A stretch of DNA of 62,536 bases, the filler included, from Stramenopiles sp. TOSAG23-6 (lineage: Eukaryota): assembly GCA_900128565.1 (NCBI GenBank). It is 11 parts of 11 records of this genome, joined end to end, with 100 filler letters (N's around TTAATTAATTAA, not from the genome) between each part and the next. Parts side by side here need not be neighbours in the genome. Positions count along the whole stretch, not along the records: positions 1 to 5,613 come from LT636868.1; positions 5,714 to 11,326 come from LT636869.1; positions 11,427 to 17,037 come from LT636870.1; positions 17,138 to 22,745 come from LT636871.1; positions 22,846 to 28,452 come from LT636872.1; positions 28,553 to 34,155 come from LT636873.1; positions 34,256 to 39,856 come from LT636874.1; positions 39,957 to 45,531 come from LT636875.1; 3 more parts are not named here. The stretch is one strand, 5' to 3'. Both the position numbers and the translations under genes were made by a program. Shown here in pieces: positions 1 through 57,029 of the stretch (within the stretch, counting starts at the first letter, position 1; each line of letters starts with the position of its first letter). Below the pieces are notes generated by a model that was not told where the DNA came from, searched no databases, and saw nothing but the letters and a program-made list of their open reading frames with translations.

Positions 1-54
1 GTACGAAATTTTGTACCTAACGATTTTTTTTTGAAATATTTTTCCAAAATACAT
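1..54 (+). other. Partial consensus intron (3' half), AT acceptor
   Basis: GTACGAAATTTTGTACCTAAC...TGAAATATTTTTCCAAAATACAT, followed by an open frame (.LDKEAWTICPIIAVTFGDG). Confidence 0.8.
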
Positions 55-440
55 GGTTAGATAAGGAAGCTTGGACTATTTGCCCTATTATTGCAGTGAC
101 GTTTGGTGATGGACTTGCTGAACCTGTAGCAGTCTATTGGTCGAGAAATAAGGTTTGCGGCGGTACTCATACGTATCAAACACGTGGCATGTGTACAACT
201 CGTAAGTTTACGCGTAGTATTGAAGGTTCCGCCACTGTATTTTTATGGACTGTGATTGCAATATTTTTCATTTATTCAGAACTTTCTGGTGCTGAACTTG
301 GCTTTCTACTAGTTGTCTTACCCATAAGTATGTCAGTTCTAGAAGCATATGCGCCACACTCTCTTGATAATCCTTTTTTACTTGGCTGGGGATACTTTTG
401 TCTTATTCTTGCACACTATTTTGGTGATTGGGTAGAATGA
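55..440 (+). CDS. Last exon of a CTP-transferase / phytol-dolichol-kinase-like membrane protein
   Basis: GDGLAEPV, RSIEGS and SLDN motifs with hydrophobic helices; 5' exons lie outside the window. Confidence 0.65.
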
Positions 441-595
441 TCTGATATTTTTGAGTACAAGAATAATTCTAAACTTGTTAATGATTTTTTTTTGATGCAA
501 AAAACATAAATAATGATTGAGTTCGATTTGTTCTTATTTTTTCAAAAGAAATACATAAAAAATGAGATACTTATACTCCAAGTTTTTTTTATTTT

Positions 596-3500
596 TTATT
601 TGATTGAATTCTTCACTAAAGGAGGGGGCATTGGTGCTGATGTATTTGGAATGTTTAATGAAGAATTCATCTGAATATCCATGGATTCACCAACTATTAA
701 GCCAGAGGTTACAGCAGACTGATGTCGAGTTATCTCCTTGGCCTCTTTGAAACTTTGCATTATTTCACATATTCTACGAAAATCTGGTCTTTTTTCAGGA
801 TCTTGGTGCCAACATGATGTTATTAAACTTGACCACTCTTCTGAAATTTCTATATTTAGTGGAGGTCTTTGCCCTTCCTGAACAATTTTTGAAATATCAT
901 GTCTATTAATATTTGTATACGGTATTCTTCTAGCTTGAATGACCCACAATAATATCCCATAGCTATACACATCAAACTCAATTGTCTTATCAATAAAAAA
1001 GTTTCCGTTATTTCCGAAAGATTCCGGAGGCATATATTTTGGGACATATTTGAAAAATTTGACTTTTTTTTTTGTTAGGTATAAAATTAAAAATTTTTTT
1101 TTTTTTGAAATTCATGATTAGGGTTAAGGTTAAACGTACATATATTCTAAAGTTCCTTCGACGGGTAGTAACTTCTTCGAAACCTCCGCTATCCGTGATG
1201 GATTCGAATGACGGCGAGTTTTGATTTTTCTCAGATTAGTTCGAAGTTTTGACAAGCCAAAATCGCAAAGTTTCACAACCCATTGTGAATCGTTCTCTGT
1301 ATGCATTGTGAAAAAATATTTTTTTTTTCGAAAAAAAAATCGTTAGTACGGAATTTTCTACCAAATTTTTTTTTTTTAAAGTTTTTAAAAAATTCAATGT
1401 TGAAAACTTATATTATTATTTCCTCGAGTGAGTAAAATATTATCTGGTTTTAGGTCTAAATGAAGAAGGCATTGTTTACCTCTTTCAATGTCTTCATAGT
1501 GAAGATATCGCATTCCTTGTGCAATTTGTAAAGAAATACGAAATTTAAAAGCTTTTGAAAACTCAATTTCTGTATTTAATATCATAGATTTCAAATTCGT
1601 TTCAAGATATTCGGTAATAATATATAAATTATCCTCACTATCCTTTGCAATACCATAAAACCACATTATATTTGGATGATGTAGTCGTGCAAGGGCAGCA
1701 CTTTCAGATTTAAACTCTTCTAAATCCTCTGTATGTAGAGTGAAAAAATATTTCAAAACTTTGATGTTTTTGTTAGGTACAAAATTTCGTATGAAAAATA
1801 AATAAATTTGTAATTTAACCATGAAAACGTACATCTAAAGTCACAGAAAATAACTGTTTTACTGCAACTGTTGTACCATCATATTTACCTTTAAACACTT
1901 GACCTGACCCTCCTGCTGCGATTTTGTCTCCTAACTGTACCTTATCAAATGGTATACACCATTTTTTAATAACGGCATCTCGGTCTTTTTCAGTTTTTTT
2001 ATTTATACTATTCAATACCCAATGTTTATGTTGCCACCAGATTAGTCCCAAAGCAGTGTGAAAAAATATTTCAAAAAAAATTCAAATTTGTTAGGTACAT
2101 TTTTTTTTATTTTCAGGAAAAAAAAAAGAAAAAAAAAAAACGTACTCGTAACGGTAAAACCAATAATACTAAAAAGACTAATTACAATGAGAGCTGTATA
2201 GTCTTCATCTGATGAAGCTGTAAAATTACATGTAGCCTCGGCAGACCAGAGTGTATGGATCATGAAAAATATTTCAAAAATTTAAATCGTTAGGTACAAA
2301 ATTTCGTACGAAAAAAAAATAAACTCGAAATTGAAATGAAAACGCACATCACAATCACAAATACCATTTATATCACATTGCGGTTCAGTTGCCAGACTAT
2401 TACTTTTAGTGGCACAAGTATTGTAAAAAAATATTTCAAAAAATTTTTGAAACTTGTTACAAAATTTTCGTACAAAAAAAAAATTTCGTACAAAAAAAAT
2501 TTTTAAATTTAAATTTCAAATTTAAATTAATAAATTGAAATGAATGATGAAACCGTACAAGTACTTTTACACGTTTGATAACATGTTATTTGAAGCGTGC
2601 TTTGACGATAAAAAGATTCAGGTGTAAGTAAAACCAAATTGCCCAACGGAGTCCCATCTACAGCATGAGGCTGATAGGACAGTGTATATGTTGGAGAAGT
2701 CGATACCCCAGATAAAAACCACATTTGAAATAAATGTATTGTGAAAAAATATTTTTTTTTGTAAAAAAAAATGTTAGGTACAGAATTTCGTACGAAAAAA
2801 AAAATGAAATTCCTCATGAAAGCGTACGTGATTTTTGTCAGGTCTTAAATTAATACAACCGGAAATTGAAGTTTCAGTATCCTCGTGGAGTGAAGAATCG
2901 AGTATTATATCAGTAGTACTTATCTGGATCCGAACACCCCCGCGTGACCCAGATAACTCAAACCTATATAACGTGTGCAATAAATCAACCTTGTTCTGAG
3001 TAAATAAATAGGTATACAATTTTGGTATGGAATGTAAACAAATAGTAAAGTTTGTAATAAACAAAATGCACGTAGAAGCGAAATCCCGCGCTATCAATAT
3101 TTGCAGCATCTGTCGCATTATCAGACACATTCAACATAGATGTTAATGAGACATAGCGAAGTTTAGGAGAGAAATTTTTGAGGGAAGGGCTGTTGACTAA
3201 CGTATAATACGACATATTTGTCGAGGTGCCACTTGCTGCGTTGGAAATATCGTTCACACTCGCGGATACTTCACTAGATGTGACAAATACACCGTTGATA
3301 AGAGTTTTGGGGTATTCAAGAAGCTCGACACATGTATCACATGGAACACATCCTCCTACAAAAGCATCCGCTTCCGCAGTTGTGATTACACCACACCCAC
3401 TGGTCTCTGCGTCAGCAACGTTTTCTTTTGTCACAACAAAATTTCCACTTGGACAAGTTTCAGTACGGAGGACCACTTCCTTTCCAGGTGTTATAGAGTT

Positions 3501-3970: not shown

Positions 3971-5296
3971 ATGGTATCTCAAAATTGGTTGGACAGCCCA
4001 GTACTTACAAAGCGCCAACGAGGTGCTTTGTTTAGTATGTTTAAGACTGGTGGTAAAGGATATTGTATTAAAGCTGAGGTATTATTAAAAAAACTTCGTT
4101 CGAAACCCAAATTACTCCATAAAATGAATACTTGGGCAAGCGGTGGAGACGGCACAGCTGCATTTAATGCACAAGTTGAAGCTGAAATAATACGATCAGA
4201 TCCACGCGAAGTGCATTACATTGATAGAAACCTAGAAAAAGAATTAATTGCTAAAATTGCAAACTATGCAACGGAGGCAGTAGCAGATAACGAGTTGAAA
4301 ATTAGCGTCAACGATTTTGTTGATTGGCTCGAACCAAAGCGGGGTAGTTCTAAGGGAAAGAAAAAGAAAAGATTAACAACCGTCGATTTAAATATAGCTG
4401 AAAATAATGTGCATGATTTTGATAGTCGTAGTTTAGAGTGCAGTATTAAAAGTGTAGTTGATAAGCATTTGACGGGCAAGGATAAAGTACCTGATTTTGA
4501 TAGTAGTAGTTTAGAAGGTACCACAGACGCTTCCACCGGAGGTACAGAAGGAGAAGTATCCCTTTTGTCTGTAGTGTCTAATAGTAATAGTATAGAAAAT
4601 AACTGTAGTATACAAAATGTGGAACTGTCACGACGAAAGCGTATAGATTCAATAACAACAGATCTTTCCATTGCTTGGAGTGCACCTATCAGACTTCCTT
4701 CAGAAAGTATCTGGAATGGAATACAGCCAAGACCTCGAACTTGTGCAAAGGGTTCAAAACAACAAAACCAACAAAACCAACAAAAACAGCAAAAGTCAAA
4801 AATATGCACTTTCTCTCGCGGACCTCCTACGGATGGATCCATCGGTTTTATTAATCAATCTAGATCTATTCATTTGAACCATCAAACATCTAGAGAATCG
4901 GGTGATGTGTCTTTTGATATAACAGAAAATTCAAAAATTAGAGAAAACGAAACAGTAGAGAACACCAAAGTAGTACATAAACCAAAAGCGAGATTTACTT
5001 GTCGAAAGTGCCGGTTTTTATTATTTACGCAAGATGATTTAGAAACTCACCAAATAGGTGTTCATGGCTTTGGCTGGCAACAAAAACGAGGCAAATCTTG
5101 CCAGTCGCTTTTCGTGTCTGAAAGATTGCCTTGGATGACGGATTGCACATACGGGATAGAGAACAAAACAATTTGTCCAAAATGCAGGACTAAGCTAGGG
5201 AGTATCAAATGGTGTGGTGCCCAATGCTCCTGTGGTACGTGGATTACACCTGCGCTTCAATTTCCTCTGAGTAAAATAGATGTCAAGTTTTTATAG
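3971..5296 (+). CDS. Protein with a C-terminal YVH1/DUSP12-type zinc-binding domain; no phosphatase domain seen
   Basis: CRKCR..H..C..W..CPKC..KLG..W.G.QCSCG.WITP pattern; intronless ORF. Confidence 0.75.
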   Translation: MVSQNWLDSPVLTKRQRGALFSMFKTGGKGYCIKAEVLLKKLRSKPKLLHKMNTWASGGDGTAAFNAQVEAEIIRSDPREVHYIDRNLEKELIAKIANYATEAVADNELKISVNDFVDWLEPKRGSSKGKKKKRLTTVDLNIAENNVHDFDSRSLECSIKSVVDKHLTGKDKVPDFDSSSLEGTTDASTGGTEGEVSLLSVVSNSNSIENNCSIQNVELSRRKRIDSITTDLSIAWSAPIRLPSESIWNGIQPRPRTCAKGSKQQNQQNQQKQQKSKICTFSRGPPTDGSIGFINQSRSIHLNHQTSRESGDVSFDITENSKIRENETVENTKVVHKPKARFTCRKCRFLLFTQDDLETHQIGVHGFGWQQKRGKSCQSLFVSERLPWMTDCTYGIENKTICPKCRTKLGSIKWCGAQCSCGTWITPALQFPLSKIDVKFL

Positions 5297-5557
5297 AAAA
5301 AAAAAATGTTTTTTTTATTAGGTACAAAATTTCGTACCAAAAAAAAAAAATAGAGGTCAAGTTTTTATAGATTTCCAAATACAGAAAAAATATACTTTAT
5401 TTTTTAAAAAAACACAATGTTTTGACACCAAAATGTAAATAAATATTCATTTTTTTTCAAAACAAAACTAAAGAACTCAATATTTCTAAAATTGTTATTC
5501 GTCTTCCAACAATAGTTATACAAAGTTTCACTTCATCTTCTTTCTCATTGCAACAAT

Positions 5558-5613
5558 ATGTATTTTGGAAAAATATTTCAAAAAAAATCTAAAAAAATTT
5601 GTTAGGTACAAAA
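5558..5613 (-). other. Partial consensus intron at contig end, AT acceptor
   Basis: TTTTGTACCTAAC...TTCCAAAATACAT on the minus strand. Confidence 0.7.
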
Positions 5614-5713
5614 NNNNNNNNNNNNNNNNNNNNNNNNNNNNNNNNNNNNNNNNNNNNTTAATTAATTAANNNNNNNNNNNNNNNNNNNNNNNNNNNNNNN
5701 NNNNNNNNNNNNN
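5614..5713. other. Artificial contig linker (N-run + TTAATTAATTAA + N-run); also at 11327, 17038, 22746, 28453, 34156, 39857, 45532, 51203, 56873
   Basis: Same 100-nt layout each time, with stops in all six frames. Confidence 0.97.
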
Positions 5714-6108
5714 ATAAAAGAAACATGTCAAAATCCAGAAGAAGTTACTTATTCTGATCGATGTTGCGGACCTTCGGAATCTTTTCTTTTCACTTCAAAC
5801 GTTGACATTCTGCGTATAAAAGAATTAGAAAATGAGTTGTTCGAAGAGAGGTCTAAAGTTAAAAAATTGAGTCAAATGCTACAAGAAGAGCTCACTAGTA
5901 GTATAAAACAAACAGTTTCGCTCCGTTCCAAATATATAATTCGGGCATTAGAACGAAAACAGCGAAATAAACTAACCAAAAGTCGGGAATAATAATGATA
6001 CTATGTACTCAATTGTAATTTTCAATGATTACATAAATTTTGTTATAGGTCCTATAAATCCTATAATATGAATTTTATATATAAAAGAATCAAAAAATAT
6101 ATACAGAT

Positions 6109-7219
6109 TTACTTTTTTTTTTGTCTTTTTACTTTCAATTTTGTAGATTTTGACTTTATAGGACGTTTTTTTACATTGGATTTTCCAGGACTAGACAATC
6201 TCTGAAAAACAAATGTGTTTTCTGAAGATGCTTTTTCATTAAACGCGTATGTATTGTGAATAAAAATGTTCTACATTGGAAATTTGTTACGAAATTTATA
6301 CGAAAAAACACTGAAAATAAAAAAAATGAATTTGAAACTGAGGGAAGGAAACATAGTGAAAAATGTGTTTTACGTTATATAAAATTGTTAGCTACGAAAT
6401 CGTTTGTGAAAAAAAATGAAATTTCTGATAAAGAGAAAACATACAACCTCCTTTATAGTAATCCCCTCCGTCGAATTCCTTCAATTTTTCAAGACTATCG
6501 ATTTCGTTGGATATCAAATATCTAGTCATGGCACCTCTGGCCATTTTAGCATAGACAGAAGGACCAGGAAACATACATGTTATTACAGGTGCGTTTAATT
6601 CTTCTACATGAATACTTTTAAAATATTCCTGTGAAGCTACGTTGATTACCCTGACATTACCCCTTTGTTTTTTTTTACACGTGAGTTTCTTTATATCTTT
6701 ATTTAATGCATCTGTAATTTGAGAACCCCAAAATTCATAATTGTTCTTACCTTTAGCTGTGGATAACTTCTTGCTCATATCGAGTCTGTATGGGCGAATT
6801 TTATCGCAGGGTCGAAGTACACCGTATAGTCCACATAAAATACGAAGATGACTTTGCGCGAAAGTCATCTGAGAACTATCAAGTTCTGGAAATCGCAGTG
6901 TTTTATACGCAGCACCAGAAAACATCATACCAGCCTGTTTTTGTTTCAAGTCCATCCAATTTTGATACCTTTCGAAGTTTAGACAACCAATCTTCCCTTT
7001 AACACCTAAAAGTTTGTCCAACTCCTTACGAGTCAACTTTCCCAAAGCATCAGCAAGGTATTCAGCACCCTTACCCAAAAGAGGTTTAGTTGATGCTACG
7101 GGGCATTTCACTGTAGTTTCGTCGAGGGTTTTCGCGGGAGATAATACTATTAGAAATTCCATACGCATATTTCCTTGTTTTACAGATGAAGAAAGACGCT
7201 GGCCAACACTGCGCAGCAT
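6109..7219 (-). CDS. yaaA: YaaA/DUF328 (peroxide stress) family protein; 2 exons
   Basis: LSPAKTLD, GLYGVLRP.D.I.PYRLDM, INVASQEY, AKMARG.M; exon 2 (6248-6109) supplies GYAF..S....VFQR. Confidence 0.9.
6249..6444 (-). other. GT-AT intron, double length
   Basis: GGT T|GTATGTTTT...CACAATACAT|AC GCG. Confidence 0.85.
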
Positions 7220-7510
7220 TAATAAGTTGTATTTATTTTTGGTCTGTTTAGAGTTAGAGAGACTTCAAAAAAAAAGAAGACATTGAATTTTGAGAATTAT
7301 TGGATGATCGGTCCACGGTTACCCGGTAATGGTACATTGACGGTTACTTCTAACGGAAGAAGAAGACCTCTGGCAAAAACGTGCATTTACTTTCAGAATC
7401 AATTTCCAATTGTAAAGGTGCATCTACTTTTCAGAATCAATTTCCGATTTTGAGCAATAAAATACCAATTTGGAATAGTTCTAGCTCTAGCATATTAACT
7501 TTCGGGGGAA

Positions 7511-7960
7511 ATGTTACAACGTAAGGCCGCCGCCGCCGTAGATAATAAAATCGCGTCGTCTTTACCATTTGCAGTGTTACTACACCTAAATAGGTATTTT
7601 GCGACTACCTATTTTCTACTTAATATAGCATTATTTATCTACAAAGACTACAAATATCCATATCCTGACAATGGAAGTTATGGTTGGGAAGTTACTTTTA
7701 TATTTTTTTTCCTTTGTATTGAATATATAAGGTTATTTCTAGGCTCCAAGGGAAACAAAACGGAACAAATTGAGCCTCTTTTTTGGTTTATTGGACTTTC
7801 AATTGGCACTATTCTACTCAACATTTACTACTTAAAACTACAGACATATGTATTACAGATTGATGCGATCATAAATATTATGTCTTTAGTGCTTGTGTCT
7901 GGAGAACTTTTATTTTGTACTTTAGCAGCTTTAACTTTTGCACGAAATGGGAAACTTTAA
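7511..7960 (+). CDS. TMEM216/TMEM17 family ciliary transition-zone membrane protein
   Basis: SSLPF..LL..N, RLFLGSKGNKTE, LQTYVL motifs; four TM segments. Confidence 0.85.
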   Translation: MLQRKAAAAVDNKIASSLPFAVLLHLNRYFATTYFLLNIALFIYKDYKYPYPDNGSYGWEVTFIFFFLCIEYIRLFLGSKGNKTEQIEPLFWFIGLSIGTILLNIYYLKLQTYVLQIDAIINIMSLVLVSGELLFCTLAALTFARNGKL

Positions 7961-8231
7961 CTTTTCCATGGTTTGGGATGAAATGGGAAACTTTGAATCG
8001 AGAATAGAAAAAATAGTACTATCGCCATAGAGGAAGCATTATTTTACTAACAGTAAGAAAATTATACCTATAAACATATTATTATTGAATCGTTTGTGTT
8101 TTGTTTGGCAATTTTTCACCTGTACCATTAAATTTTCTCAACTCGTCTCATGAGACTTCGCAGTTACCGGGTAATGTGTAGAAAAAAATTCAGTCCCTGA
8201 CGCCTTGGACTCTTCGAAATATACTTCAATA

Positions 8232-9623
8232 ATGTCGGGCATGGGTTGTACTGCATGTGATCTTGTGGATGCCTTTGTTACAGAAGAGAGTCATCGAGCT
8301 CACTTTAAATCTGATTGGCATCGGTACAACTTACGCCGTAAACAAGCTGAAATGATGCCTGTGAGCGAAAAACAGTTTATTCAGCGTAGACGAAGAGCGC
8401 AAATGCTTTTGGAGGCTGAATCTCGAAAAGAAGCTGAAGAGGCTGATAGAATTTTTTATTGCGATGTATGCAGCAAGCACTTCAATAGTTCTAGTATGTT
8501 AGAACAACATCTTCTCTCTAAAAAGCATGCCTTGGCTGTAAAGAAAGGTGGGTCAAGTCGACAGAAGAAGAAGAAAAATTACGAAAATAGAAAAAACAAG
8601 CAACAGAAGAAGAAGAAAATAGAACCCGTACGTGGGGAGAAAATCACAAATATACCACAGAGTCCAGAGCAAGAACTTGCTACACCTATTGCGCCGTCTT
8701 TGAATTCTCCAAAACGGGTTTCTTTCAATCTTGAAAAGTCTACAAATGTAGAACCTAACGTCGTGATCCCTAGCATGGGTCAAGAAGAAACATCTACTCA
8801 ACAACCAGAAGGTATTAAAAACGGTATATGTCTATTTTGTTCACATGAGAGCCCATGTGGTACGGCAGAAGGTGTTATGTCACATATGTTTAACGAACAT
8901 GGTTTTTTTCTTCCTGATCAAGAATATCTTCACGATTTGTCTGGTTTGAAAAAATATTTGGGGGAAAAAGTTGGTATTGGTTACCTCTGTCTGTATTGCC
9001 AAAAAGGCTTCTCATCAAAACAAGCATGCCAGCAACATATGATTGATTCATCTCATTGCAAGTTGTTGTATGATCCTGCTATAGACACTTGTGAGTATAC
9101 TGATTTTTATGATTTTTCATCATCTTGGGCTGGTGTTGATGCTGGCGTTGATGGGACATCTTTGCTAGCATCTCGTAGAGTTCGTGTTGACCATAATGGT
9201 GAATTAATACTAGAAGATGGAAGATTAGTTGGACACCGAGACTACCAGCGTGTGTATAAGCAAAAGGTTGTCACTGAAGACAATCGAGAACAAGTTGTTG
9301 CTAATATGTCATCAATTGCAGAAAGAATATTAGGTAAAGAGATGGCATCTGCTTTTGTACAAGCGAGATTGTCGGATGTACCTCATAGTGCCCGACTTTC
9401 TGCTCATGGACGAAGTCAAACACAGAGAAGTAAAGCTCTCATGGGACTATCACCAATGCAGATACAGGCCGTTCGCAAGGCTCGTACTGTTGCACACAAA
9501 GCTATTACACTTCAAAATCATAAATTTTATAAAAATCGTTCAAAGGTCCAATGGAATCAAAACAAATTGAACGTTCTCAATATTGGATCAAATAATAAGC
9601 TTGGACTTTCATGGAAAAAATAA
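8232..9623 (+). CDS. ZNF622: Pre-60S maturation zinc-finger protein ZNF622/Rei1
   Basis: HFKSDWHRYNLRRK, CLFC...HM..EHGFFLPD.EYL.D..GL, GHRDY.RVYKQ. Confidence 0.93.
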   Translation: MSGMGCTACDLVDAFVTEESHRAHFKSDWHRYNLRRKQAEMMPVSEKQFIQRRRRAQMLLEAESRKEAEEADRIFYCDVCSKHFNSSSMLEQHLLSKKHALAVKKGGSSRQKKKKNYENRKNKQQKKKKIEPVRGEKITNIPQSPEQELATPIAPSLNSPKRVSFNLEKSTNVEPNVVIPSMGQEETSTQQPEGIKNGICLFCSHESPCGTAEGVMSHMFNEHGFFLPDQEYLHDLSGLKKYLGEKVGIGYLCLYCQKGFSSKQACQQHMIDSSHCKLLYDPAIDTCEYTDFYDFSSSWAGVDAGVDGTSLLASRRVRVDHNGELILEDGRLVGHRDYQRVYKQKVVTEDNREQVVANMSSIAERILGKEMASAFVQARLSDVPHSARLSAHGRSQTQRSKALMGLSPMQIQAVRKARTVAHKAITLQNHKFYKNRSKVQWNQNKLNVLNIGSNNKLGLSWKK

Positions 9624-9782: not shown

Positions 9783-11326
9783 TTAAGCAACTTCATCTTT
9801 TGTGACCCATTTGTGGTCATCTTTTTCACCAATGTAATGCTCCTCCAAATTATTTGGGTCAATACCATGCATGTATCATGGAAAAATATTTTTTTTTAAT
9901 AAAAAAATTGTTAGGTACAAATTTTTCTATGAAAACAAATGTAGATAAAAAAAATACATGATGAAAACGTACATTGGGTTTTCAGCATGGTACTCCAGTG
10001 CTTTCACAAACAACTTTGTGGTTACAGGATTATTCAGAAGAGGGACATCAAAATCCACTGCTGCGCGACGAATAGTGTAATTATCAGCAAGACTCACTGA
10101 ATTTTCATTTGGAAGATTTATAGCCAAATCAATCTTCCCTTCTTTAATGAGCTCCACAGCGTCATCTTCACCTTTTCCGGGCCATGGCGCAAGAGTACTT
10201 TCAACATTATTTGCCTGAAAAAAAGCATGCGTACGTTCTGTAGCAAATAGATTGTAACCAAGTTGAGTTAAGTTGTATGCGGAGTGAATAAAATCTTGTT
10301 TGTACTCATCTTGAATCGATACAAGAATATTTCGTGTATCAACAGGAAGATTAAACCTTGCCGCAAGTAAACCTTTCATAAAAGCCTCTTCTTTATTTGC
10401 TCCAAAACACGCAACTTCACCTGTAGATGCCATTTCCACGCCCAGTGTCGGGTCTGCACCTCGAAGACGAGTGAATGAAAACATTGGGACTTTCACACCT
10501 ACATATGAGCTAGGTCGTGGTGCTTTGTCCAAAGTGGGTAAATCGTCATCTTCTTGTGGCTCGTCGAGCATTGCGCGAGTTGCAACATTGATGAAATCAG
10601 TACCGACAGTCTTCGAGACAAAAGGTACAGAACGTGATGCTCGAAGATTACATTCGATACATTTTATATCAGCATCTTTAGCCAGAAACTGAACGTTGAA
10701 CGGACCAGTAATGTTCAAAGCATCTGCTATCTTTGCAGCATCCTCCCGAACACGCGAAATTTGAAATTTAGATAACTCTTGTGGTGGTAATACATGCGTA
10801 GCATCACCAGAATGTACTCCTGCATTCTCCACATGTTCAGCAACGGCATGACAGATAATCTTGCCATCCTTTGCAACAGCATCAACTTCAACTTCATAAC
10901 AACCATCAATGAATTCAGTAATCACAACAGGTTTGTCTTGGGATACTTCAGCAGCATTAGCAAGAAAAGCTTCAAGCTGTGAAGGATCTCGGGCGACCTT
11001 CATAGCTGCTCCAGAAAGAACATGTAACGTAGGCAAATATTGTTTTTTGTAAACATTCTTTAGTTACAAAATTTTCATAGTAAAAATAAATCAAATTGAA
11101 ATTGATTATGAAAACGTACATATGATGGGCGAATCAGAACCGGGTAACGTTGCTCACACCATGTACGTGCATCATCCAATGTGGAGAGGGCTGACCATGC
11201 TGGTTGGTCAACTCCAATCGTATGTATTTTGGAAAAATATTTCAAAAAAAATTTTAAAAAATTGTTAGGTACAAAATTTACTATAAAACAAAAATTCGTA
11301 TTTGAAAAAAAATAAAACAAACATCC
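9783..11326 (-). CDS. Carbamoyl-phosphate synthetase large chain, C-terminal part (ATP-grasp + MGS domain); 5' truncated by contig end
   Basis: RPSYVLSGAAM after splicing, EHVENAGVHSGDA, IECNLRASRS.PFVSK, EMASTGEV. Confidence 0.95.
9871..9972 (-). other. GT-AT intron (CPS)
   Basis: CCA AT|GTACGTTTT...CATGATACAT|G CAT. Confidence 0.85.
11022..11119 (-). other. GT-AT intron (CPS)
   Basis: TCA TAT|GTACGTTTT...CGTTACAT|GTT CTT restores RPSY-VLSG. Confidence 0.93.
11222..11322 (-). other. GT-AT intron (CPS)
   Basis: GAT|GTTTGTTTT...CAAAATACAT|ACG ATT GGA gives D-TIGVDQP. Confidence 0.8.
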
Positions 11327-11503
11327 NNNNNNNNNNNNNNNNNNNNNNNNNNNNNNNNNNNNNNNNNNNNTTAATTAATTAANNNNNNNNNNNNNNNNNN
11401 NNNNNNNNNNNNNNNNNNNNNNNNNNTTTGGTAAAAAAATTGTTAGGTACAAAATTTCGTATGAAAAAAAACAATTGATAAAAATTCAATTTTCAAAACG
11501 TAC

Positions 11504-35281: not shown

Positions 35282-35479
35282 AACTGAAAATATATTCGTC
35301 TTTTGTGTGTGTCTAACTAAAAGAGTAGAAATAAGTTTTCTTGTTTCATGTGAAATTTATTATACTATGTTCAGTAAAATTATTAAATATAACATTCAAT
35401 ATTTCATTTATTTTGTTTTTAAACGCAACCTTTTTTTTGTTTTGGTAGAACATTTTGTACCTAATATTTTTTTTCTCTT

Positions 35480-39769: not shown

Positions 39770-39980
39770 GTATGTTTTAATTTTTTTTCAAATTCGTTTT
39801 CTTTTTTTCGTACGAAATTTTGTACCTAACGATTTTTTTTTGAAATATTTTTCCAANNNNNNNNNNNNNNNNNNNNNNNNNNNNNNNNNNNNNNNNNNNN
39901 TTAATTAATTAANNNNNNNNNNNNNNNNNNNNNNNNNNNNNNNNNNNNNNNNNNNNAAAAAAAAAATTTTTAAAAAAAAA

Positions 39981-40014: not shown

Positions 40015-40035
40015 TGATTGATAAAAAAAACCTAC

Positions 40036-42115: not shown

Positions 42116-43395
42116 TAAAAAAATCGTTAGGTACAAAATTTGGTACGAAAAAAAAATATATATTTGAAGTTGAAAAAAAAAAATACATTCGAAATTGAAA
42201 TGATTTGAGAGTATTGTTTATTTTATTTTTTAACAATTAAAGAATCGATTCTTTTTGATCTTCACTCATTCCTAACTAATACACTTAATCATAGAAATAT
42301 GCTAAAGTTCCCTGGAGAAAAGTAATCTGAAATCGACAATGTAAACCCAACACCGAATACTCAATATTACCAAACATGTGTAATATTAGGGTTAGGGTTT
42401 TTACAGAGAAAACAAGAAAAAAATAAAAACAAACGAGGAAACTCAATAGAAAAACAGTACTAAATTTCATAGATGTACGCCAAAGCTATTCTAAGTTCCA
42501 CCAGGGAAATCTGAAGAAACAACTCTCAAGGGCAAATCGAAGAACCGGAAGACGTTTCAGAACGAAACTAATCAAGTTGGTTAAACGCAATTTTAATATT
42601 CCATTCTTGTAACAAACTGTGAAGTAAAATGAAGAACGTATCCTTCAGCAACACAATTCTGACATAAGTATGGGAAGGTAACACAATGTGAAGATAACAC
42701 GATATACAGATATATCGATTACGTCACAAGAGGTGTGGAAAAGAAGGAAAGAAAAGAATAGTTGAAAGAAATATAACAATGAGCTGGAATTGAACCAGCT
42801 GTCGAAACAAAACTGTACAACACAAAAACATCATATTATTGTCATACATTTTTGAATAGATAGAAGCCATTCCCAAAGTAAAAGGTGTCGTGGAGACACG
42901 ACGTAGAGTAAGCTCCGTTGAGTTGACCACAGAAGGTAGCACGACGTCTACAATCTGTGGTTAATCGTATAACTTTGTTTACACAAACAACTAGATGGTT
43001 CAACTGACAAAGCTCAAGCTCATATCGAAATACAAACCTTCACAGCTATACAGCGTACCTCTAGTCTCGTCAATGAAGACGGCCACTCTCTGGCTCAGTG
43101 TGCGGAGACTTTCCCCCGCCCGAAGGCGGAAACGATTCTTACGTCGGTCTTGAACACACGCACGCAAACAAACGAGAGAAAACAAAAAGCCAAAGCGAAT
43201 GAATGGTGAAAAATAACACGAGTTTTTGGAAAAATCAACTGACTCGAAAATTGAGTTGACCGCGTCAAAAAGACTGTCAAAAACTTCATATCTTTTTGCT
43301 TCAAATTAAAATTGTTATATTATTCTGTCTACGTACGTACAAATTAAGAGTGTTTTCATATATACCATGAAACAAATTTGTGTATATTATCAATC

Positions 43396-45109
43396 ATGAG
43401 TACACAAAAGAGTGGAGATGGCAATGGTGATAGTCTCTCCGTCGTCCGTGTCAAGCCTATTGGCGTTGGGGCAGGTGGAGTTGAGAAGTCAGTCACTGGG
43501 ATCTTGGATGGGGAGGGGGCACTCCGTTACTCAAGCAAACCCCCTCAAGTATCAGTCGTCAAATCAAAGACTGCGAAAACGTTTAAGTATCCTGCACATG
43601 TAATCACTCCTGATATAGATAATGCATCACTCTATGATATCTTTATGCCTCGGCGTGTGCAAGCTTTTCTAGATGGAGTCAACGTCAATGTCTTGGCTTA
43701 TGGTCAAACAGGCACTGGAAAGACACACACAATGTTTGGTACACCAGGAATAATGGCAAAGGCAAGTGCTGGTACATTCGGATTAAATATTTCTCCAGAT
43801 TATGGTCTTTTTCCTCGTGCCATTATTGATATATTTCAACGAGTGAAACAGCGTGGTAATAAATTTGTACTTACAGCTTCTTCAGTGGAGCTTTCAATGA
43901 TTCTAGGTAACCGAGATTTATTGACTTCTAGAAAGGGATCCAAATTGACAGGTATGTGGCAATCTAGCTGTAATGGTATTACCCTTAACAGAGACACAAA
44001 GCCTCCACGTCTGGTTGGAATGTACATTTTCAAAATAGAATATTTTAATTAGATTTTTTTTTCGTACCAAATGGAAATCTAAAAGTTTCATACCTAACAA
44101 TTTTTTCATTTTTTTTTTAAATTTCACAATACATGAGGGAAGTTGAGTTAACTGATGAGTCGTCAATTCTTGAAATATTCAAAGGCTTATCAGAACGTTG
44201 TACTTCAGCAACGTCATTAAATGATACAAGTTCTCGTACTCATTGTTTTGTATGGTAAATATTTTACTACATTTTTTTTTCTACCAAAATTTGTACCTAC
44301 TAGTAATAGTAGTAAGTAACAAAAACAATTTTTACTAATTTTTTTTTTTGAAATATTTTCTCAAAGTACATGTTTGGCTTACACTAAGAGCTTTTGATTC
44401 AACAACAAAATGTGTCAAAACATCTCGGTTTCAATTTGTAGATTTAGCAGGAAGTGAACGAATAAAAGATGCACATAATACATATAATTACAAAGAGGCA
44501 GGTTTGGAAGGTATGACTGGTATGTTGACAAATTATAGTTTAACTATGTTGTCAGCGTGTGTAAGGGCTGTATTTTATCCGATTTTATCATGAATTTCAA
44601 AAAAAATCAATTTTAAATTTTGTATGAAACAAAAACAATTCACCAATTTCGAATTTTAAATATTTTTCACAATGTATGTAGTACAGGCAAAACAAAAGGG
44701 TAAAATGAAGAACTTTTCTTTCAGGTTATACATGTTTGATGTAGTCCTTCTTCTCTCAGAGTCAATGACAGGTGCAGCATTAACTACAGTGTTTGTATGT
44801 GTCTCCCAGGAACTAAATAGTGCCTCACAATCAGTCAATGCATTGGACTTTGGAAAAGAATTTAGTTGTCTTGCTATAAAAAGACCTCGTGTTGTTCATT
44901 CAAAGAAGATAAATAAGCTCATTCGAGATACTACAGCTCAATTACAAGTCGCTCAGATAGCAGTAGAAAAGAATATTCCAGAAAGATTCAAAAAAATACG
45001 AACTGGACAAATTACAGATGCAAAACAGACTTTATACTACTTGAAAAAGTTTGCTGATGATACTACTACAACAACAACAACTACTACTATAGAGTCGGCT
45101 TCTAAATAA
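43396..45109 (+). CDS. Divergent short kinesin motor protein; 4 exons
   Basis: AYGQTGTGKTHTM, NDTSSRTH, FVDLAGSER. Confidence 0.92.
44022..44134 (+). other. GT-AT intron (kinesin)
   Basis: GGA AT|GTACATTTT...CACAATACAT|G AGG. Confidence 0.88.
44250..44371 (+). other. GT-AT intron (kinesin)
   Basis: TTT|GTATGG...AAAGTACAT|GTT TGG. Confidence 0.85.
44570..44677 (+). other. GT-AT intron (kinesin); alternative in-frame donor at 44561
   Basis: GCT|GTATTTT...CACAATGTAT|GTA. Confidence 0.75.
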
Positions 45110-50860: not shown

Positions 50861-51359
50861 TGTGAATATTTATTGATTTTTAAAGTGAAAAAATTATTGA
50901 TGTATTAAAAGTTTATTTATTACCCGTTGGGAACACTTGCCCGGAAGATTTAAATTTCATTTTATGTGTACATTTTTGTCAAAATATTGTTAAGTAATAG
51001 AAATTCACCCTTTACGTTATCTGAAAAAGGCTCAACAAAGACGATGCCGCTTCTTCTTCTTCTAGTTTTTTATTAAAGGCATTTTCCAGAAGACCATTTA
51101 ACTTCATTGAATATCGGTAAACAAAGACATCCAGGAAATTGTGTCGAGATACTGGAAGCTCTACTCCCGGAAGTAAAGCAACAATTTTTTTTAGATTATT
51201 TTNNNNNNNNNNNNNNNNNNNNNNNNNNNNNNNNNNNNNNNNNNNNTTAATTAATTAANNNNNNNNNNNNNNNNNNNNNNNNNNNNNNNNNNNNNNNNNN
51301 NNAGGTACAAAATTTCGTACGAAAAAAAAAATTGGAATTTGAAAAAAAATAAAACATCC

Positions 51360-52061
51360 ATAGTCAGTAACATGATTAATCACAGCATATGCAATTTCTG
51401 CTTCTGCAGCAAGTTGTGCTTCTGGGACAGTAGTCATATTAATCAAATCAAGATTCCATTGTCTAAAAATATTGCTTTCAGTGCGTGTAGAAAATCTCGG
51501 TCCATTGATGGAAACAACACTTCCTCTCTCATGCAACTTTTTGGAAAATTCGGGATTTTCCTTTTTTTTATCTGCTATCATCTTGGAACACTCTGATATC
51601 AATATTTCACGAAGCACAGGACAAAATGGATCCGCGAGGCTAATATGAGCTACGCAGCCATCTCCAAAAAATGTACCCTCGCGCTGACCACCAGAGGTTC
51701 TGTCAAAGCTTCCATTTGGAATTGCTATGTCTCCTGGCCGGAAGTTTTCTTGTAAACTTCCACATGCACTTACAGAGATAAGCCATTTGACACCAAATTT
51801 CTTGAAACCATATATATTTGCACGGTAATTGATTTCTTGTGGTAATATGCCATGACCAACACCATGGCGAGCCAAAAACACAACGGAATGACCATGTAGC
51901 TTTCCAATGACATACGAATCACTTGGTGCTCCATAAGGAGTGCTTAGTGTAACTTTTTTGATATCTGTCATTTCAGGTAGATTGTACATACCACTACCGC
52001 CAATAATGCCAATATCAGCGGAATAAGCAAATGTATCCCTGGTATAATTTTCGCTCGACAT
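51360..52061 (-). CDS. MTAP: S-methyl-5'-thioadenosine phosphorylase, first exon; intron with GG donor begins at 51359
   Basis: IGIIGGSG, TPYGAPSD, FLARHG, NYRANI, GPRFSTR.ES, NMT..PEA.LA, VTDY. Confidence 0.95.
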
Positions 52062-52342
52062 TATCAAATAAATAGTTTAAACTTTATACTGTGGACTGAA
52101 TACTATTTTTTAGTCTTGTCGTACTAGTTATAGTGTATTGTTGGTGTCATGACATTTTGTGTGATTTGGATTTGCGGGTCAAGTTGAGAAAAACACGAAA
52201 TCATCACTTCGGCTTCCGTTACGTAGTAAAAACGGTCGGCGATCTTTGGAATATTTGTGGCCAACTACTACACGACTTACAGTAGCAATTTATCCAAGTT
52301 CAGTTTATTAAGGTTCGCTTTCACCCAAATTAAGGTTTTAGA

Positions 52343-55300
52343 ATGATTCCAAAGAGAACTGCAATGAGTCTCGCCAGAGAAAAGCTAACGGAATTTGAAA
52401 AGAAGCATGCTGTAAGCGCCAATATCTACAATATAAGTGAAACTAGTTTCTTGAATAAAATGAAACGAATCAACAACAGCAGTGAATTGTCTGATATCAA
52501 TATGCACGCAGAATTGACCGAAGCAGATGAAATGGTTGAACTTCTAAAGAAACGTTTGGGAGAAAAAGCAAAATATGAAAAATCACTTATGCAAGGTATC
52601 GAATCCGCAAAGTCGTCAGAAGACGTTTTGAGAGCACAACTAGACAGTGAGGTCCGAGCTCGAGAGCATGTTGAGAGACAGATCGAACAGCTTCAAGACC
52701 AGGTAAAAGAATATAAAAAATCTGTTGAACGCAACCAAAAGAAAGAAGTCGCGCAAGTCGAAGAAATCAATTCACTCGAATTACAAATGAAAGACTTGAA
52801 AATGACGTATGATCAAACAGTTGCAAAAGAGCACAAAGCTGAAATTAATCTTCATGAAAGTGAAAAAAGATCACGTGACCTTGAAAGAGAATTAATTCAT
52901 GTTCGCATTGAAAACGCTCGACTTCAAGAACAATATGATCTTAAACAACAAGAGTCTCATGAATTGGAACTTAAGTGCAGTACTGCACGAGATAAGTTAA
53001 TTCGGGAAGTCAACGCCACCAAAATTAAAGTCATCGCAATGAAGAAAAATTACGCGGAGTGCGTCGCTGATATCGAAAAACTTCAAGTAGATCTCAAAGA
53101 AGGGCAATCCACTTTAGAGAACTCAAAGGTAGAACACGAGAAGGCAAAGGCAGTTTTAGAAGCTACCCAGGCTGAACTTGATGCTCGACTTGTTGAAGAA
53201 GAGAGAGCAACGGAAATTTTATGTGCTGAGTTGACAGAAAAAAATAAGCAGGAAATGCACCTAACTGTTCAAATGGAAACATGTAAAAAAGCAAGAGTTA
53301 TGCTTTCTGAGACTCTGGCGGAAAAAACGGAACTAGCAGAGGATCTTGGTAAACGTCTAAGTAATCTTCAAGGGCATTTAGAAATTATGGAAGAACGAAT
53401 GGAAGAAAAATACAAGGAGAATAGTAAACTTGCAAAGGAACTCGAGCACACCGAATCGAATTTAAATTTATTGAAACTCCAGCTTAGCAAGGAAAGGCAC
53501 AATAAAGCTGAACAAGAACGAGCTTTAAAACGAGAACAGTCAAATGCTGCTATTATTCAAAGAGAGATTTTAGCAAGATCAAATACTGATAAACAAATGC
53601 TTACTGCTGTAAACGAAGCTGAAGTTAAGTCTCAAGATTTGTCAGATCAACTTCAAGCATGCGAAGAAGAGCGTCAAAAGTACTTGGCAGAAATTACTCA
53701 TACTAATGATAAAATGTATGTTTTACGCCAAAAATACGACGGCGTTCAAAAGGCTTTAAAAAATATGAAACTTAAACTTACTTTGAAAAAAGAAGAGTAT
53801 GATTCCATGGATAAAGAGTTGAAAAAGCGCTCAAAAGAGTTTGTGTTTAATGAACATGAAGCAAAGCTCAAAGCGACTGATTTGAGACATCAAATTGCAG
53901 AAAATACTGAAAGATTACAAGTCTTGAAAAATACGTTGGACTTAAATGAAATTAAGATCAAAGATTCAAAGAGTGTATTACATCAAGTTTGTGAAAATGC
54001 AGAATTTGAACGCCAAAATCTTAGCCAGCAAATACAAGAGCTAAAATCAGCCAACGCTTTGATCGCAACAGAAACTGAACAAGAAAAGCATAAAGGCAGG
54101 GCACTTGAGAATGATTTGATATCCGCAGAAAATCGTTTAAGAGAAGCCTTGGCAGCCATTGGCGCACAAGAGAAGAAGAGTCAAGGACTAAATATTGTGA
54201 ATCAAGAAGAGCAGGACAGAATGATGCAGCAACTCAGAGATATTACAGCACAGATTGATGATATGAATCAAAAGACAATGGATAATCGATCCGAAATTCG
54301 CGACTGGCAAGTAAAATTGAACGATACAAAGCAAGAAAAGATGCGTATTGAAGAACATCTCAGTAGTGAACAGGCCATCACAAAGAAACTTCGTGATCAG
54401 CTTGAAGAAAAGATGGACATTGGTCTTTCTCAGAAATCAAAGATTGCTATGCTGGAACAACATAATCACGACCTGGATATCAACATGTCTGCAATATCCA
54501 AAGAAGAAGAGAAGGTTCGTTGTGATGTTGACGAAATTCAGTCAAAGGTTGATGTACTGAAACAAGAGGTTCGTGATGCTGAATTGCGTAACCAAACATT
54601 TTACAATGAACAACAAGCAACGCATAGAACTATCATGGAATTAGAAAGCTCACTAAAAACACAGGAATCTCAACACATAGCAGATGCACGAGCAGTGAAG
54701 TTATCTATCGTATCTCTACAGGATGCTTTATTATCAAAGGTGAATATTGTTGAAAGTTTGGTACACTCAACTCGTGCCACACAGGCAAAAGCAAAGTCTG
54801 TACAGAAACGTTTAGATGATACTAATGCCGCGGCTGCGGCTTCTCAAGGTCGCTACCAGACAATGTTGATGGAAGAGCAACGTACTACAGCTGCACTACG
54901 GCAAGAAATTGAAACACAAATGCGCAATGAAAGAGTTCTGCAACAACATTTACTCAAGAAAGATCAACAAGGCCAAGAATTGCAAACAAAATTGGCGGAA
55001 CAAACTTCGCGGACAAGCATCATTCAGAGCGATGCGTTAACCAAACGAAAAGAAGCTGACATGGTTATGGCAAGTTTGGAGAAGAAGACTTCAAGAGAGA
55101 AAGAAATGATGTCGGCAATAAACGAGCGCAGTGAAGAAATATTGGGTTTTAGAACAAAACAGCGCGAAGAGGATATGAAAGAGAAACAGATTCGAACATC
55201 ATTGAAACAAACTGAATTCGAAAACAATTTACTGAAAAAGCAGATTGCAATAAAAATGAGATCAGAAAGAGTCGCACTAGTCGACATAGAGGCAGAGAGA

Positions 55301-55372
55301 GTGCATTTAAAACGTGATCCTGAAAATGAAGTAAATGAATTCAAAAACGGGAGCGAAGTTGGAAAAGTTTAA
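52343..55372 (+). CDS. Long coiled-coil protein of unknown function
   Basis: 1009-aa intronless ORF rich in E/K/Q heptads. Confidence 0.85.
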   Translation: MIPKRTAMSLAREKLTEFEKKHAVSANIYNISETSFLNKMKRINNSSELSDINMHAELTEADEMVELLKKRLGEKAKYEKSLMQGIESAKSSEDVLRAQLDSEVRAREHVERQIEQLQDQVKEYKKSVERNQKKEVAQVEEINSLELQMKDLKMTYDQTVAKEHKAEINLHESEKRSRDLERELIHVRIENARLQEQYDLKQQESHELELKCSTARDKLIREVNATKIKVIAMKKNYAECVADIEKLQVDLKEGQSTLENSKVEHEKAKAVLEATQAELDARLVEEERATEILCAELTEKNKQEMHLTVQMETCKKARVMLSETLAEKTELAEDLGKRLSNLQGHLEIMEERMEEKYKENSKLAKELEHTESNLNLLKLQLSKERHNKAEQERALKREQSNAAIIQREILARSNTDKQMLTAVNEAEVKSQDLSDQLQACEEERQKYLAEITHTNDKMYVLRQKYDGVQKALKNMKLKLTLKKEEYDSMDKELKKRSKEFVFNEHEAKLKATDLRHQIAENTERLQVLKNTLDLNEIKIKDSKSVLHQVCENAEFERQNLSQQIQELKSANALIATETEQEKHKGRALENDLISAENRLREALAAIGAQEKKSQGLNIVNQEEQDRMMQQLRDITAQIDDMNQKTMDNRSEIRDWQVKLNDTKQEKMRIEEHLSSEQAITKKLRDQLEEKMDIGLSQKSKIAMLEQHNHDLDINMSAISKEEEKVRCDVDEIQSKVDVLKQEVRDAELRNQTFYNEQQATHRTIMELESSLKTQESQHIADARAVKLSIVSLQDALLSKVNIVESLVHSTRATQAKAKSVQKRLDDTNAAAAASQGRYQTMLMEEQRTTAALRQEIETQMRNERVLQQHLLKKDQQGQELQTKLAEQTSRTSIIQSDALTKRKEADMVMASLEKKTSREKEMMSAINERSEEILGFRTKQREEDMKEKQIRTSLKQTEFENNLLKKQIAIKMRSERVALVDIEAERVHLKRDPENEVNEFKNGSEVGKV

Positions 55373-55505
55373 TTTATAACTTTGTTTTTCTTTTTGAAAG
55401 CAAAGGAAACAGAATTCTACATTCATTAACGAGAAACGACTTTGTACAATAAAAGTAGATAATATCCGAAATTATTGTAATATTTTATCATACTCAAATC
55501 TTAAA

Positions 55506-56775
55506 TCACATAGATAAAGCACGTTGTGTAATATCTCTACTAGTAGATGGAGTACTGTGCAATGCTTTATCAGAACCAGGGCTTCTAATTTCTTCAATAC
55601 TTTCACCATCATCCAAATCCACTTTATCTAATGCCGGTATTGTAGTTATCACTCGCATACCAAGCTCTGATACTTTGTGTCGAAAGTTAGAATCTGGACA
55701 AGTGATAAACATCATATTCATGGAAACTCCAAGCTCACGGGCAATCCATTGAACAGATGAAGGTGAGAATGTACCTGACATACAAATACACGAAACCTGA
55801 ATTTTCGGATAAATGCTGTCTAGCAATTGAACATGTTCATATAAGTTTTTGGGTACTCCCACTTCAGGATCATACACATGCACAACAAGCATTTTGGCAG
55901 TTTCTTCATTCTCTCGAACATAAAGTATAGCTTTATTTAGAATCACGAGAGAATCATTTTTTAGAAAAAATACTACCTTTTTATCCGCAATTTCCGCCAT
56001 CATTTGTTTAGCTGTAATATCCCAACGCTGGCGAAAACTTTTAAAATGTCTAAATAATTTGTAGGAACCTCGGAGGTACATCTTGAGTAAGAATGTTCTT
56101 TGAAACATTATCATCATTATTAAGGCTACAGCCGCTGTGTACATAAGAAAGTACTGCAATGCTGCACCTTTTGAAATTAAATTACCTACCACTCCCATTG
56201 CAGCACTTATGAGGGCAACAACAACCGTGAACCACGAGGCTTCTACTTGGCGTGGTAGTCCAGGTCGTTTGTATTTCAGTAGCATTGTGCCAATTGTGAA
56301 GCATATCATAAGTCCTAGAAATGCAAAACAATAGACACCACTTAAATTCTCTAAATTTATCTTGTGTGATATTCCAGTCAAAATATCGTACTGTAATACA
56401 ATAAGCAGAGATGATGCAACAACAAAATATCCAAATATAATATAATGGTTCGTACCTCGCCATGAATTTGTTTTAAGAAAAAATTGTGGTAAACATCGAT
56501 CTTGAGAAAGCTTACGAATTAAACCTCCGACGCCGACATATGCTGTTAAAACTGAACCAGATAAAACAATGAATGCGTCAATTGATACTAAAAGTTTAAG
56601 CCAAACATCAGAGATGATTATCGTTTCACTTGTCTTTGAAGGATAGTTTGAGGATACTGCAACTTCTCCCATAATCGCCAGAAGAGTTCCAGAGTTTTTA
56701 GGAATAGCAGTAAGTTTAATTGTACAGAGTGCTAGAAAAGTAATCATTGGGTTGAAGAAGCTTACAATGGCCCAC
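55506..56775 (-). CDS. APC-superfamily amino acid permease, last exon (AT acceptor at 56776)
   Basis: DAFIVLSGSVLTAYVGV.GL...DRCLP, L.GVY.FAFL, LNKAILYVRENE. Confidence 0.88.
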
Positions 56776-57029
56776 ATGTATTTTGAAACAATATTTCAAA
56801 AAAAAAACNTNAANTTGNTANGTANCAAAATTTCGTATGAAAAATAAATTCGATTTTTTTGTTAAAAAAAAANNNNNNNNNNNNNNNNNNNNNNNNNNNN
56901 NNNNNNNNNNNNNNNNTTAATTAATTAANNNNNNNNNNNNNNNNNNNNNNNNNNNNNNNNNNNNNNNNNNNNAGGTACAAAATTTCGTACGAAAAAAAAA
57001 ATTGGAATTTGAAAAAAAATAAAACATCC

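Follow-up and report, generated by a model that had tools for sequence, protein, structure and literature searches.

How introns that lack a terminal AG are recognised and removed is the question raised by the genes of a stretch of DNA from Stramenopiles sp. TOSAG23-6 (assembly GCA_900128565.1). Few signals in eukaryotic gene expression are as constant as the AG at the end of introns. The window, that is, the whole stretch analysed (62,536 nucleotides, filler included), carries eukaryotic genes for IFT80, CPS, TSR1, a kinesin, a kinase, TruD and others, and these are interrupted by short inserts that start with an ordinary donor and end, in most cases, in AT. The data presented here indicate that the inserts belong to a single repeat family, and they make it probable, on the evidence of the DNA, that we are dealing with real introns that are excised from pre-mRNA by a major-type (U2-like) spliceosome.

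A repeat family of introns that do not end in AG

Copies of the insert were located by scanning both strands for the donor and branch motifs, followed by a profile search. This resulted in 26 complete introns of 90-196 nt, with six further 3′ ends and three further 5′ ends cut by contig edges. The first two bases were GT in 24 of the complete introns, GC in one and AT in one, and the last two were AT in 23, TT in two and AC in one, with no AG among them. All six 3′ ends at contig edges read ACAT, which brings the AT ends to 29 of 32. The original prediction had reported AT ends in 28 of 31 introns and AG in none, along with an orientation always sense to the gene; the recount bears out the former, and the latter was confirmed in 26 of 26 introns with regard to the flanking reading frames. 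The length is not divisible by three in 19 of the 26, and the sequence TACAT was observed 217 times in the window (162 ± 13 expected).

What the original prediction had overlooked is that these introns are one high-copy, introner-like family, with many alike copies lying within introns of unrelated genes. The profile search gave 54 family hits in the window, and copies are present in nine of its ten distinct contigs. A 19-base intron core has 12 exact occurrences in the window vs none in 100 shuffles; elsewhere, only chance matches to it were found (three in metagenome_contigs, one in genome_contigs, from a Bacteroidales metagenome-assembled genome, and none in viral_contigs). The median identity of 20 aligned copies is 63% (range 46-83%), with the donor, the branch and the last three bases kept at 88-96%, and conservation in the alignment extends from two bases upstream of the GT to the first base of the following exon. 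The family consensus can be written as AT^GTAYGTTTTC ... TTTTTCGTACGAAATTTTGTACCTAAC ... T-rich ... GAAATATTTTTTCACAATACAT^G (carets mark intron borders), with no evident inverted repeat at its ends apart from GTA/TAC. Contig starts or ends fall inside copies at nine places, as would be expected of a repeat that breaks assemblies.

The family may have spread like a mobile element that favours (C)AT^G sites. Partial or degenerate copies were also observed beyond the long reading frames, in intergenic or untranslated DNA, at positions 5302-5348, 35415-35473 (this copy being followed by ..CTCTTTTAG) and 42117-42181. As for the genome-wide extent claimed originally, the support for it comes from the nine of ten distinct contigs and by the thousands of contig pieces found in seawater DNA (see below).

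Position of the intron borders

Homologues were used to place the borders, because the reading frame alone permits an acceptor at every third base. For nine introns, all donors and acceptors within ±21 nt (±27 nt in one run) were scored against four to eight homologues with no dinucleotide rule imposed. The best candidate was the modelled junction, or a slide of it that leaves the protein unchanged, in eight of the nine cases: three introns in IFT80, two in the kinesin gene, two in TSR1 and one in a nocturnin-like gene. In CPS, the two exons abut directly when aligned to a solved structure, chain 5dot_A: residue 1121 is the last of the upstream exon and residue 1122 the first of the downstream one. 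For the nocturnin-like gene and the kinase, the corresponding structure alignments do not extend as far as the junctions; homologues served to settle the former, and the kinase junction would restore GTLEY^MPPE, which we take to be a kinase motif. Proteins of relatives run continuously over the junctions in IFT80 (P0002 and P0003), kinesin (P0124) and TSR1 (P0159), although these records may themselves derive from transcripts. Eight of the scanned junctions match the homologues with no indels. Counting CPS, ten junctions are taken as exact at the protein level, one of them (the TSR1 intron starting at 34507) with an uncertainty of a codon, and the earlier statement that intron removal restores conserved motifs is supported for IFT80, TSR1, CPS (RPSY^VLSGAAM) and the nocturnin-like gene (C^GDFN).

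The use of nearby AG acceptors by transcripts had been named earlier as an outcome that would refute the prediction. In the scan, the best alternatives ending in AG had clearly lower scores than the modelled junctions, 811 vs 978 in TSR1 and 782 vs 815 in kinesin, and the terminal AG of major (U2-type) introns was found in none of the 26, either as delimited or after sliding of the borders. Sliding, which the original prediction had not taken into account, has to be considered since the 5′ exon ends in AT at 16 of the 26 introns and the next exon begins with G at 15, so that at 22 of the 26 a shift of the border by 1-7 bases leaves the mRNA unchanged; the introns at 2051-2145 and 2734-2827 are non-slidable. 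The readings reachable in this way are GT-AT in 21 introns, TG-CA in 16, TA-TG in 14 and AT-AC in 10, and GT-AT is thus the one reading that suits nearly all of them.

The AT-AC reading was tried and rejected, as it fits only 10 of the 26 introns and scores lower for the kinesin intron starting at 44250. At the nocturnin-like intron starting at 41653, the slide of −2 that it calls for gives a stop codon by hand translation, and AT-AC is absent among the best scan candidates. This intron can be read at the nucleotide level as GT-AT or TA-TG only; a third reading, AA-GC, yields the same protein but not the same nucleotides.

Internal signals and candidate machineries

The U2-like donor GTAYGT and the CCTAAC motif about 35-50 nt from the intron end, both described in the original prediction, were found again, with slightly different limits for the branch. 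Over the 26 introns the donor counts are G25 T25 A25 Y24 G24 T23, then TTT, with T at +7 to +9 in 23-25 introns, which corresponds to the GTRNGT-like donor of U2-type introns in sense orientation. Variants within the family are ATAAGT at 1411 (−), GCATGT at 38844 (+), and GGATGT at the contig edges 51359 (−) and 11326 (−). A CTAAC-like branch motif is present in 23 of the 26, all but one of which have it at a distance of 34-46 nt from the 3′ end, and a T-rich tract lies at −18 to −11, in agreement with the CTRAY motif and pyrimidine tract of the U2 type. The last three bases are C in 23, A in 24 and T in 25 introns. Donor, branch and T tract are textbook signals of the major spliceosome, and only the last base departs from YAG.

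A scanning spliceosome is expected to take the first AG past the branch. Six of the introns carry an AG 11-28 nt past the branch A, before the AT end. Splicing at it would leave 5, 23, 26 or 31 nt of intron in the mRNA and so disrupt the frame. These six bypassed AGs are consistent with a machinery that does not need AG. In addition, a conserved block, CGTACGAAATTT(T/C)GTAC, was observed directly 5′ of CCTAAC; it is a near-palindrome, complementary to the donor GTACG, and the donor pairs with it in one of six single folds.

In its anatomy, each copy supplies a donor of the yeast type (AT^GTAYGTTTT), the strong branch site TTGTACCTAAC, a T-rich tract and its own 3′ end, ..TTTTYCAMAATACAT^G. In the mechanism that we propose, removal would be performed by the major spliceosome, with the second step falling after YAT, 34-46 nt beyond the branch A, and with AG neither required nor used. 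The first and last intron bases, known to form a G-G pair from yeast genetics and spliceosome structures, might here pair as G-U; the one A..T intron and the one G..C intron would be compatible with such an arrangement. Regarding the original proposal of a spliceosome with rewired 3′ recognition, the AG-less introns with U2-like donor and branch in sense orientation stand, and the rewiring itself is likely.

An expanded and altered minor (U12-type) spliceosome would be another way to splice these introns, and we consider it unlikely. It is a live rival because GT-AT is already known as a rare but competent U12-type pair: among the 66 non-canonical U12-type introns in Table 2 of PMC1557818, 7 are GT-AT, productive U12-type splicing being possible, and the terminal pair observed here is thus one of several that the minor class accepts. 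A donor conserved to +9 and a long, near-invariant branch motif are also minor-like traits, and the Physarum preprint (10.1101/2020.10.12.336362) describes minor introns as able to expand by transposon-like spread. The donor, however, carries G at +5 in 24 of 26 introns and T at +6 in 23 of 26 in place of the TCC core of [G/A]TATC[C/T]TTT, and the branch stands 34-46 nt from the 3′ end, compared with 9-12 nt in Physarum (10.1101/2020.10.12.336362). The long T tract past the branch is likewise unlike minor-type introns. Animal U12-type introns have their branch 10-20 nt from the 3′ end. Inspection of the small nuclear RNAs, which had been suggested as a check, returned none in the 62-kb window at the gathering threshold or at E ≤ 0.5, U11, U12, U4atac and U6atac included.

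Non-spliceosomal excision guided by pairing of the intron ends, as proposed for the nonconventional introns of Euglena, is less probable still. The sequences CAU^GUA at the 5′ border and UACAU^G at the 3′ border are complementary, so that the consensus ends can form a helix of 5-6 bp over both junctions, and the ends were paired in the minimum-energy structure in two of six single folds. Moreover, most borders can slide owing to short direct repeats, and the same is true of 84% of Euglena introns (PMC12501133). On the other hand, RNAalifold gave no consensus structure for 20 aligned introns, single folds were only slightly better than those of shuffled sequences (z-scores −1.4 to −2.6), and the Euglena signature N3-CDG ... 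CHG-N5-6^R (PMC12501133) is absent, positions +4 to +6 being YGT and −8 to −6 being CAA. The end pairing is lost in the AC/AC and TT/TT introns, and it would leave the near-perfect donor and branch motifs unexplained.

DNA and RNA from independent samples

Three metatranscriptome runs and one seawater DNA run (X3) were compared with the contig at 34256-39856. The number of contig pieces matching this region was 8542 in the X3 DNA vs 1339-1536 in each RNA run. The summed depth in X3 reached 8,700-34,000 in intron bins vs about 8 over exons. Exon-intron borders were retained in X3 DNA contigs (records 9 and 11-14), and none of the X3 DNA contigs among the rows listed joins exons. These results indicate that other samples also carry the inserts in their DNA and that amplification did not create them.

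The same data bear on the possibility that the inserts are removed from DNA, like the eliminated sequences of ciliates, or that they are never removed, in which case they would be dead insertions or would have arisen artificially during assembly or amplification. The family does resemble a mobile element with short direct repeats, the assembly contains chimeras, and no spliced RNA was seen among the listed contigs. Nevertheless, we regard this as the least probable of the alternatives. Contigs of metagenomic DNA keep the borders that DNA elimination would erase (removal at the DNA level had been named in the original prediction as an outcome that would refute it); all 26 introns are in sense orientation; once they are taken out, reading frames and conserved motifs are recovered with single-residue accuracy, leaving exons without stops; and the standard code and long open frames of the genes speak against a ciliate.

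In the RNA runs, the exons of 34256-39856 were found at a depth of 1-5 only, and the joints listed leap between repeat copies. The search for junctions in metatranscriptomes, as proposed originally, thus recovered the exons but no contig bridging an intron among those listed. Removal at the RNA level is what we infer from the frames, homology, orientation and splice-like motifs.

Several observations weigh against excision by a major-type spliceosome at an AT end. No RNA contig bridging any intron was found among those listed for the three metatranscriptome runs, and the high depth of the intron family in these runs could reflect unspliced RNA, excised introns or DNA carry-over. The placement of some borders is less certain than that of others: at the TSR1 intron starting at 34507 a variant longer by one codon gains 25 points over the model, as the homologues have one extra residue nearby, which leaves an uncertainty of one codon, and the kinesin intron at 44570-44677 has a GT..AG reading, 12 nt longer, that is also in frame, so that it may be a GT-AG intron. 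The fact that 22 of 26 borders are slidable counts here as well. Besides, in 18 of the 26 introns the final dinucleotide is identical to that of the preceding exon (permutation p 0.008), and ends other than AT copy the exon end in two of three cases (AC after AC, and one TT after TT; permutation p 0.026), while seven introns with an AT end follow an exon that ends otherwise. This copying hints that the end is a target-site duplication of 2-4 bases, (C)AT^G, rather than a signal that the spliceosome recognises. Since the introns are one repeat family, their 3′ ends are alike partly through common descent. A conserved run past donor position +6 and the GT-AT pair itself are more typical of minor-type introns (PMC1557818 and, for Physarum, 10.1101/2020.10.12.336362). 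Finally, neither a small nuclear RNA nor a splicing protein of the organism was seen in the 62-kb window.

The IFT80 exon has 96% identity to protein P0001, a EukProt record named GSMAST32, and its next matches are marine metagenome proteins and stramenopiles, which suggests that the organism is a MAST-3 (Nanomonadea) stramenopile or a close relative. We also put forward a broader scenario, for which we see somewhat less than an even chance. The whole MAST-3 lineage, whose members are abundant marine flagellates, would have replaced AG by AU as its default 3′ splice site, with thousands of introner-derived GU...AU introns handled by the major spliceosome through a G-U pair of first and last bases, and with the readers of AG (U2AF35 and second-step factors) lost or altered.

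Introns of individual genes

The kinase gene, on the minus strand, contains a GT..AT intron of 108 nt at 1032-1139, placed by frame at the GTLEY^MPPE junction, and another of 100 nt at 1733-1832. The intron with A at +1 (ATAAGT..GCAT, 111 nt) lies at 1301-1411 (−) in the same gene, and its removal joins ..TRGNNN to TENDSQWVVKLCDFG. Four other introns are found on this strand at 2051-2145 (GT..TT, 95 nt, with a 3′ end from frame and family register only), 2255-2347 (GTGCGT..CCAT, 93 nt), 2416-2558 (GTACGG..ACTT, 143 nt, where the 5′ exon end is also TT) and 2734-2827 (GT..AT, 94 nt, with AC as 5′ exon end). A long GT..AT intron of 196 nt at 6249-6444 (−) contains 1.5 family copies and follows a 5′ exon end TT. 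In CPS, the GT..AT intron of the RPSY^VLSGAAM junction (98 nt) lies at 11022-11119 (−), and a second one (102 nt) at 9871-9972 (−), close to the C-terminus, has its putative 3′ end from the frame.

All three IFT80 introns are on the minus strand and were placed by homologues. They are located at 23602-23695 (GT..AC, 94 nt, with AC also as 5′ exon end), 24059-24156 (GT..AT, 98 nt, AVR^LCRFVK) and 24417-24508 (GT..AT with the end TTCAT, 92 nt, SSDM^LSA). An intron in a gene for an EF-hand protein at 27010-27105 (+; GT..AT with the end TATAT, 96 nt) is open in frame and was assigned to the family by profile. The three TSR1 introns, on the plus strand and likewise placed by homologues, are of the GT..AT kind and occupy 34507-34621 (115 nt), 34826-34953 (128 nt, EDIK^WFKP, with an internal AG bypassed) and 35025-35114 (90 nt, GTH^GAMKC). 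At 36722-36830 (−), a GT..AT intron of 109 nt interrupts a gene without known family, and X3 DNA contigs (records 11-13) enter it from both exons. The plus strand further carries the intron with the GC donor at 38844-38938 (GCATGT..ACAT, 95 nt), a long GT..AT intron of 172 nt at 39069-39240, made of two partial family copies after a 5′ exon end GT, and a GT..AT intron of 107 nt with the end TTCAT at 39318-39424.

A GT..AT intron of 104 nt at 40208-40311 (−) follows a 5′ exon end AA and has a weak downstream frame. The nocturnin-like gene contains a diverged family copy at 41653-41762 (+; GTAAGT..ACAT, 110 nt), placed by homologues at ILC^GDFN, for which an AT-AC reading is impossible. The kinesin gene has introns on the plus strand at 44022-44134 (GTACAT..ACAT, 113 nt, by homologues), 44250-44371 (GTATGG..ACAT, 122 nt, THCF^VWLTL, by homologues with the donor placed by tblastn), which passes over an AG located 5 nt upstream of its end, and 44570-44677, a degenerate copy (GTATTT..GTAT, 108 nt) placed by tblastn.

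The 3′ intron parts at contig edges, with their ACAT ends, are those at 1-54 (+), 5558-5613 (−), 22691-22745 (−), 34256-34331 (+), which is followed by a TSR1 exon, and 56776-56872 (−), which is followed by an amino-acid permease exon and has a second copy near 62446-62536. The sixth, at 11222-11326 (−), is a near-complete intron with GGATGT at the edge, and CPS homology starts directly after it. The 5′ parts lie at 11427-11503 (−; GTACGT), 39770-39856 (+; GTATGT) and 51303-51359 (−; GGATGT, an apparent GG donor). Twenty-two X3 DNA contigs continue the second of these with the consensus ..CACAATACAT.

Contigs that make up the window

The window consists of 11 contigs of about 5.6 kb each in descending order of length, joined by linkers of the form N44-TTAATTAATTAA-N44 (5614-5713, 11327-11426, then every ~5.7 kb), and genes on either side of a linker are therefore not genomic neighbours. 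The final contig (56973-62536) is an exact copy of 51303-56872, with 0 mismatches in 5564 bases; the same contig was filed twice, which leaves ten distinct contigs. The G+C content of the window is 29-37%. Its genes use the standard code in long open frames, and their exons have no stops. A gene for RNase MRP RNA was identified at 42895-43150 (−), with 82 bits over the full model, and no tRNAs were found in the window.

The contig at 28553-34155 shows 99.4% identity to its own reverse complement. Its centre (31327-31381) lies inside an intron copy, part of the copies found at 31233-31475 in the middle of the palindrome, and the contig is probably an amplification or assembly chimera. Telomere-like repeat units (CCCTAA-like) were seen in this contig at about 33440 and 34030, as well as inside the first kinase intron at 1090-1125 (−). 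Around 37860, between two divergent genes, X3 DNA records 13 and 14 and RNA contig X5 record 21 cease to match the window (at 37860-37862), and the window contig may be chimeric or rearranged near this point.

Consequences for gene annotation

The public gene model P0001, from the 96%-identical IFT80, was compared with the window region 23602-26076 (−). At all three intron sites P0001 reads into the intron or uses a cryptic GT..AG. It reads SSDMYVFFFKIYGKLV where relatives have SSDMLSA.CDGKLV, and it also lacks the stretch ..DGSAIVTGGEDGAVKTFSRTG.. that is found in relatives. This mis-splicing had not been noted in the original prediction. Standard gene finders are unable to model introns that end in AT. 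According to Table 1 of PMC5778133, 3289 and 2694 genes were predicted in MAST-3 assemblies, vs 4652-8537 in MAST-4 assemblies. Functional inferences on MAST-3 may consequently rest on damaged gene models, given the mis-spliced P0001 and the low number of predicted MAST-3 genes.

If the proposed mechanism holds, the system would constitute a natural experiment on the choice of the second-step site, with the pair of first and last bases, U2AF35, Prp8, Slu7 and Prp18 as candidates, and would shed light on the mutual influence of mobile introns and the spliceosome as well.

Comparison with known systems

The introners described by Gozashti et al. (10.1101/2022.06.06.494994, PMC12130899), which are families of introns derived from transposons in marine protists and fungi, resemble the family of the window in being short and alike, inserted in sense orientation at very high copy into unrelated genes, with repeats at the borders and splice signals of their own. 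They use GY-AG ends, whereas the window family ends in AT, has no clear inverted repeat past GTA/TAC and carries only hints of a target-site duplication. Introner surveys start from annotated introns, and a later one discarded families with unfamiliar splice sites that lacked RNA support (10.1101/2022.06.06.494994, PMC12130899); neither MAST nor stramenopiles are mentioned in the main text of these surveys, supplementary species lists aside.

In the tunicate Fritillaria borealis (PMC13326754) most introns likewise escape the GT/AG rule, non-AG 3′ ends are tolerated and a spliceosome with a preserved core is presumed. There, the change at the 3′ end was tied to duplicated U2AF subunits and to differing modification patterns of U1 and U6, whereas here the donor is canonical and the AT end uniform. 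The GT-AT introns that occur, rarely, in animals and in Physarum (PMC1557818; 10.1101/2020.10.12.336362) share the terminal pair and are U12-competent, with one conserved U2-type case in DGCR2. They represent a fraction of a percent of introns, in contrast to 21 of 26 in ten contigs here, where neither the donor core nor the branch distance is U12-like. The original statement that no GT-AT default was known holds to the extent that none was found in the literature; the pair itself is known, and rare (PMC1557818).

The nonconventional introns of Euglena (PMC12501133) and the non-canonical ones of Amoebophrya (PMC7789003) also depart from GT/AG in their majority and have slidable borders with border repeats, and Amoebophrya possesses repeated "introner elements". 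Their terminal consensus is weak or missing, and they depend on end pairing or hairpins, whereas the introns of the window have textbook U2-type signals and differ only in the last base. A literature search, in which three MAST genome papers were scanned by term, turned up no account of introns with AT ends in MAST-3. The known exceptions to the AG rule, in Euglena, Fritillaria, Amoebophrya and diplonemids, have lost the consensus entirely. Lineage-wide non-canonical splicing is thus already known, but what appears to be new is a uniform GT-AT rule in introns that are canonical in other respects, and if true it would be the first case in which the consensus was replaced by another uniform rule rather than lost.

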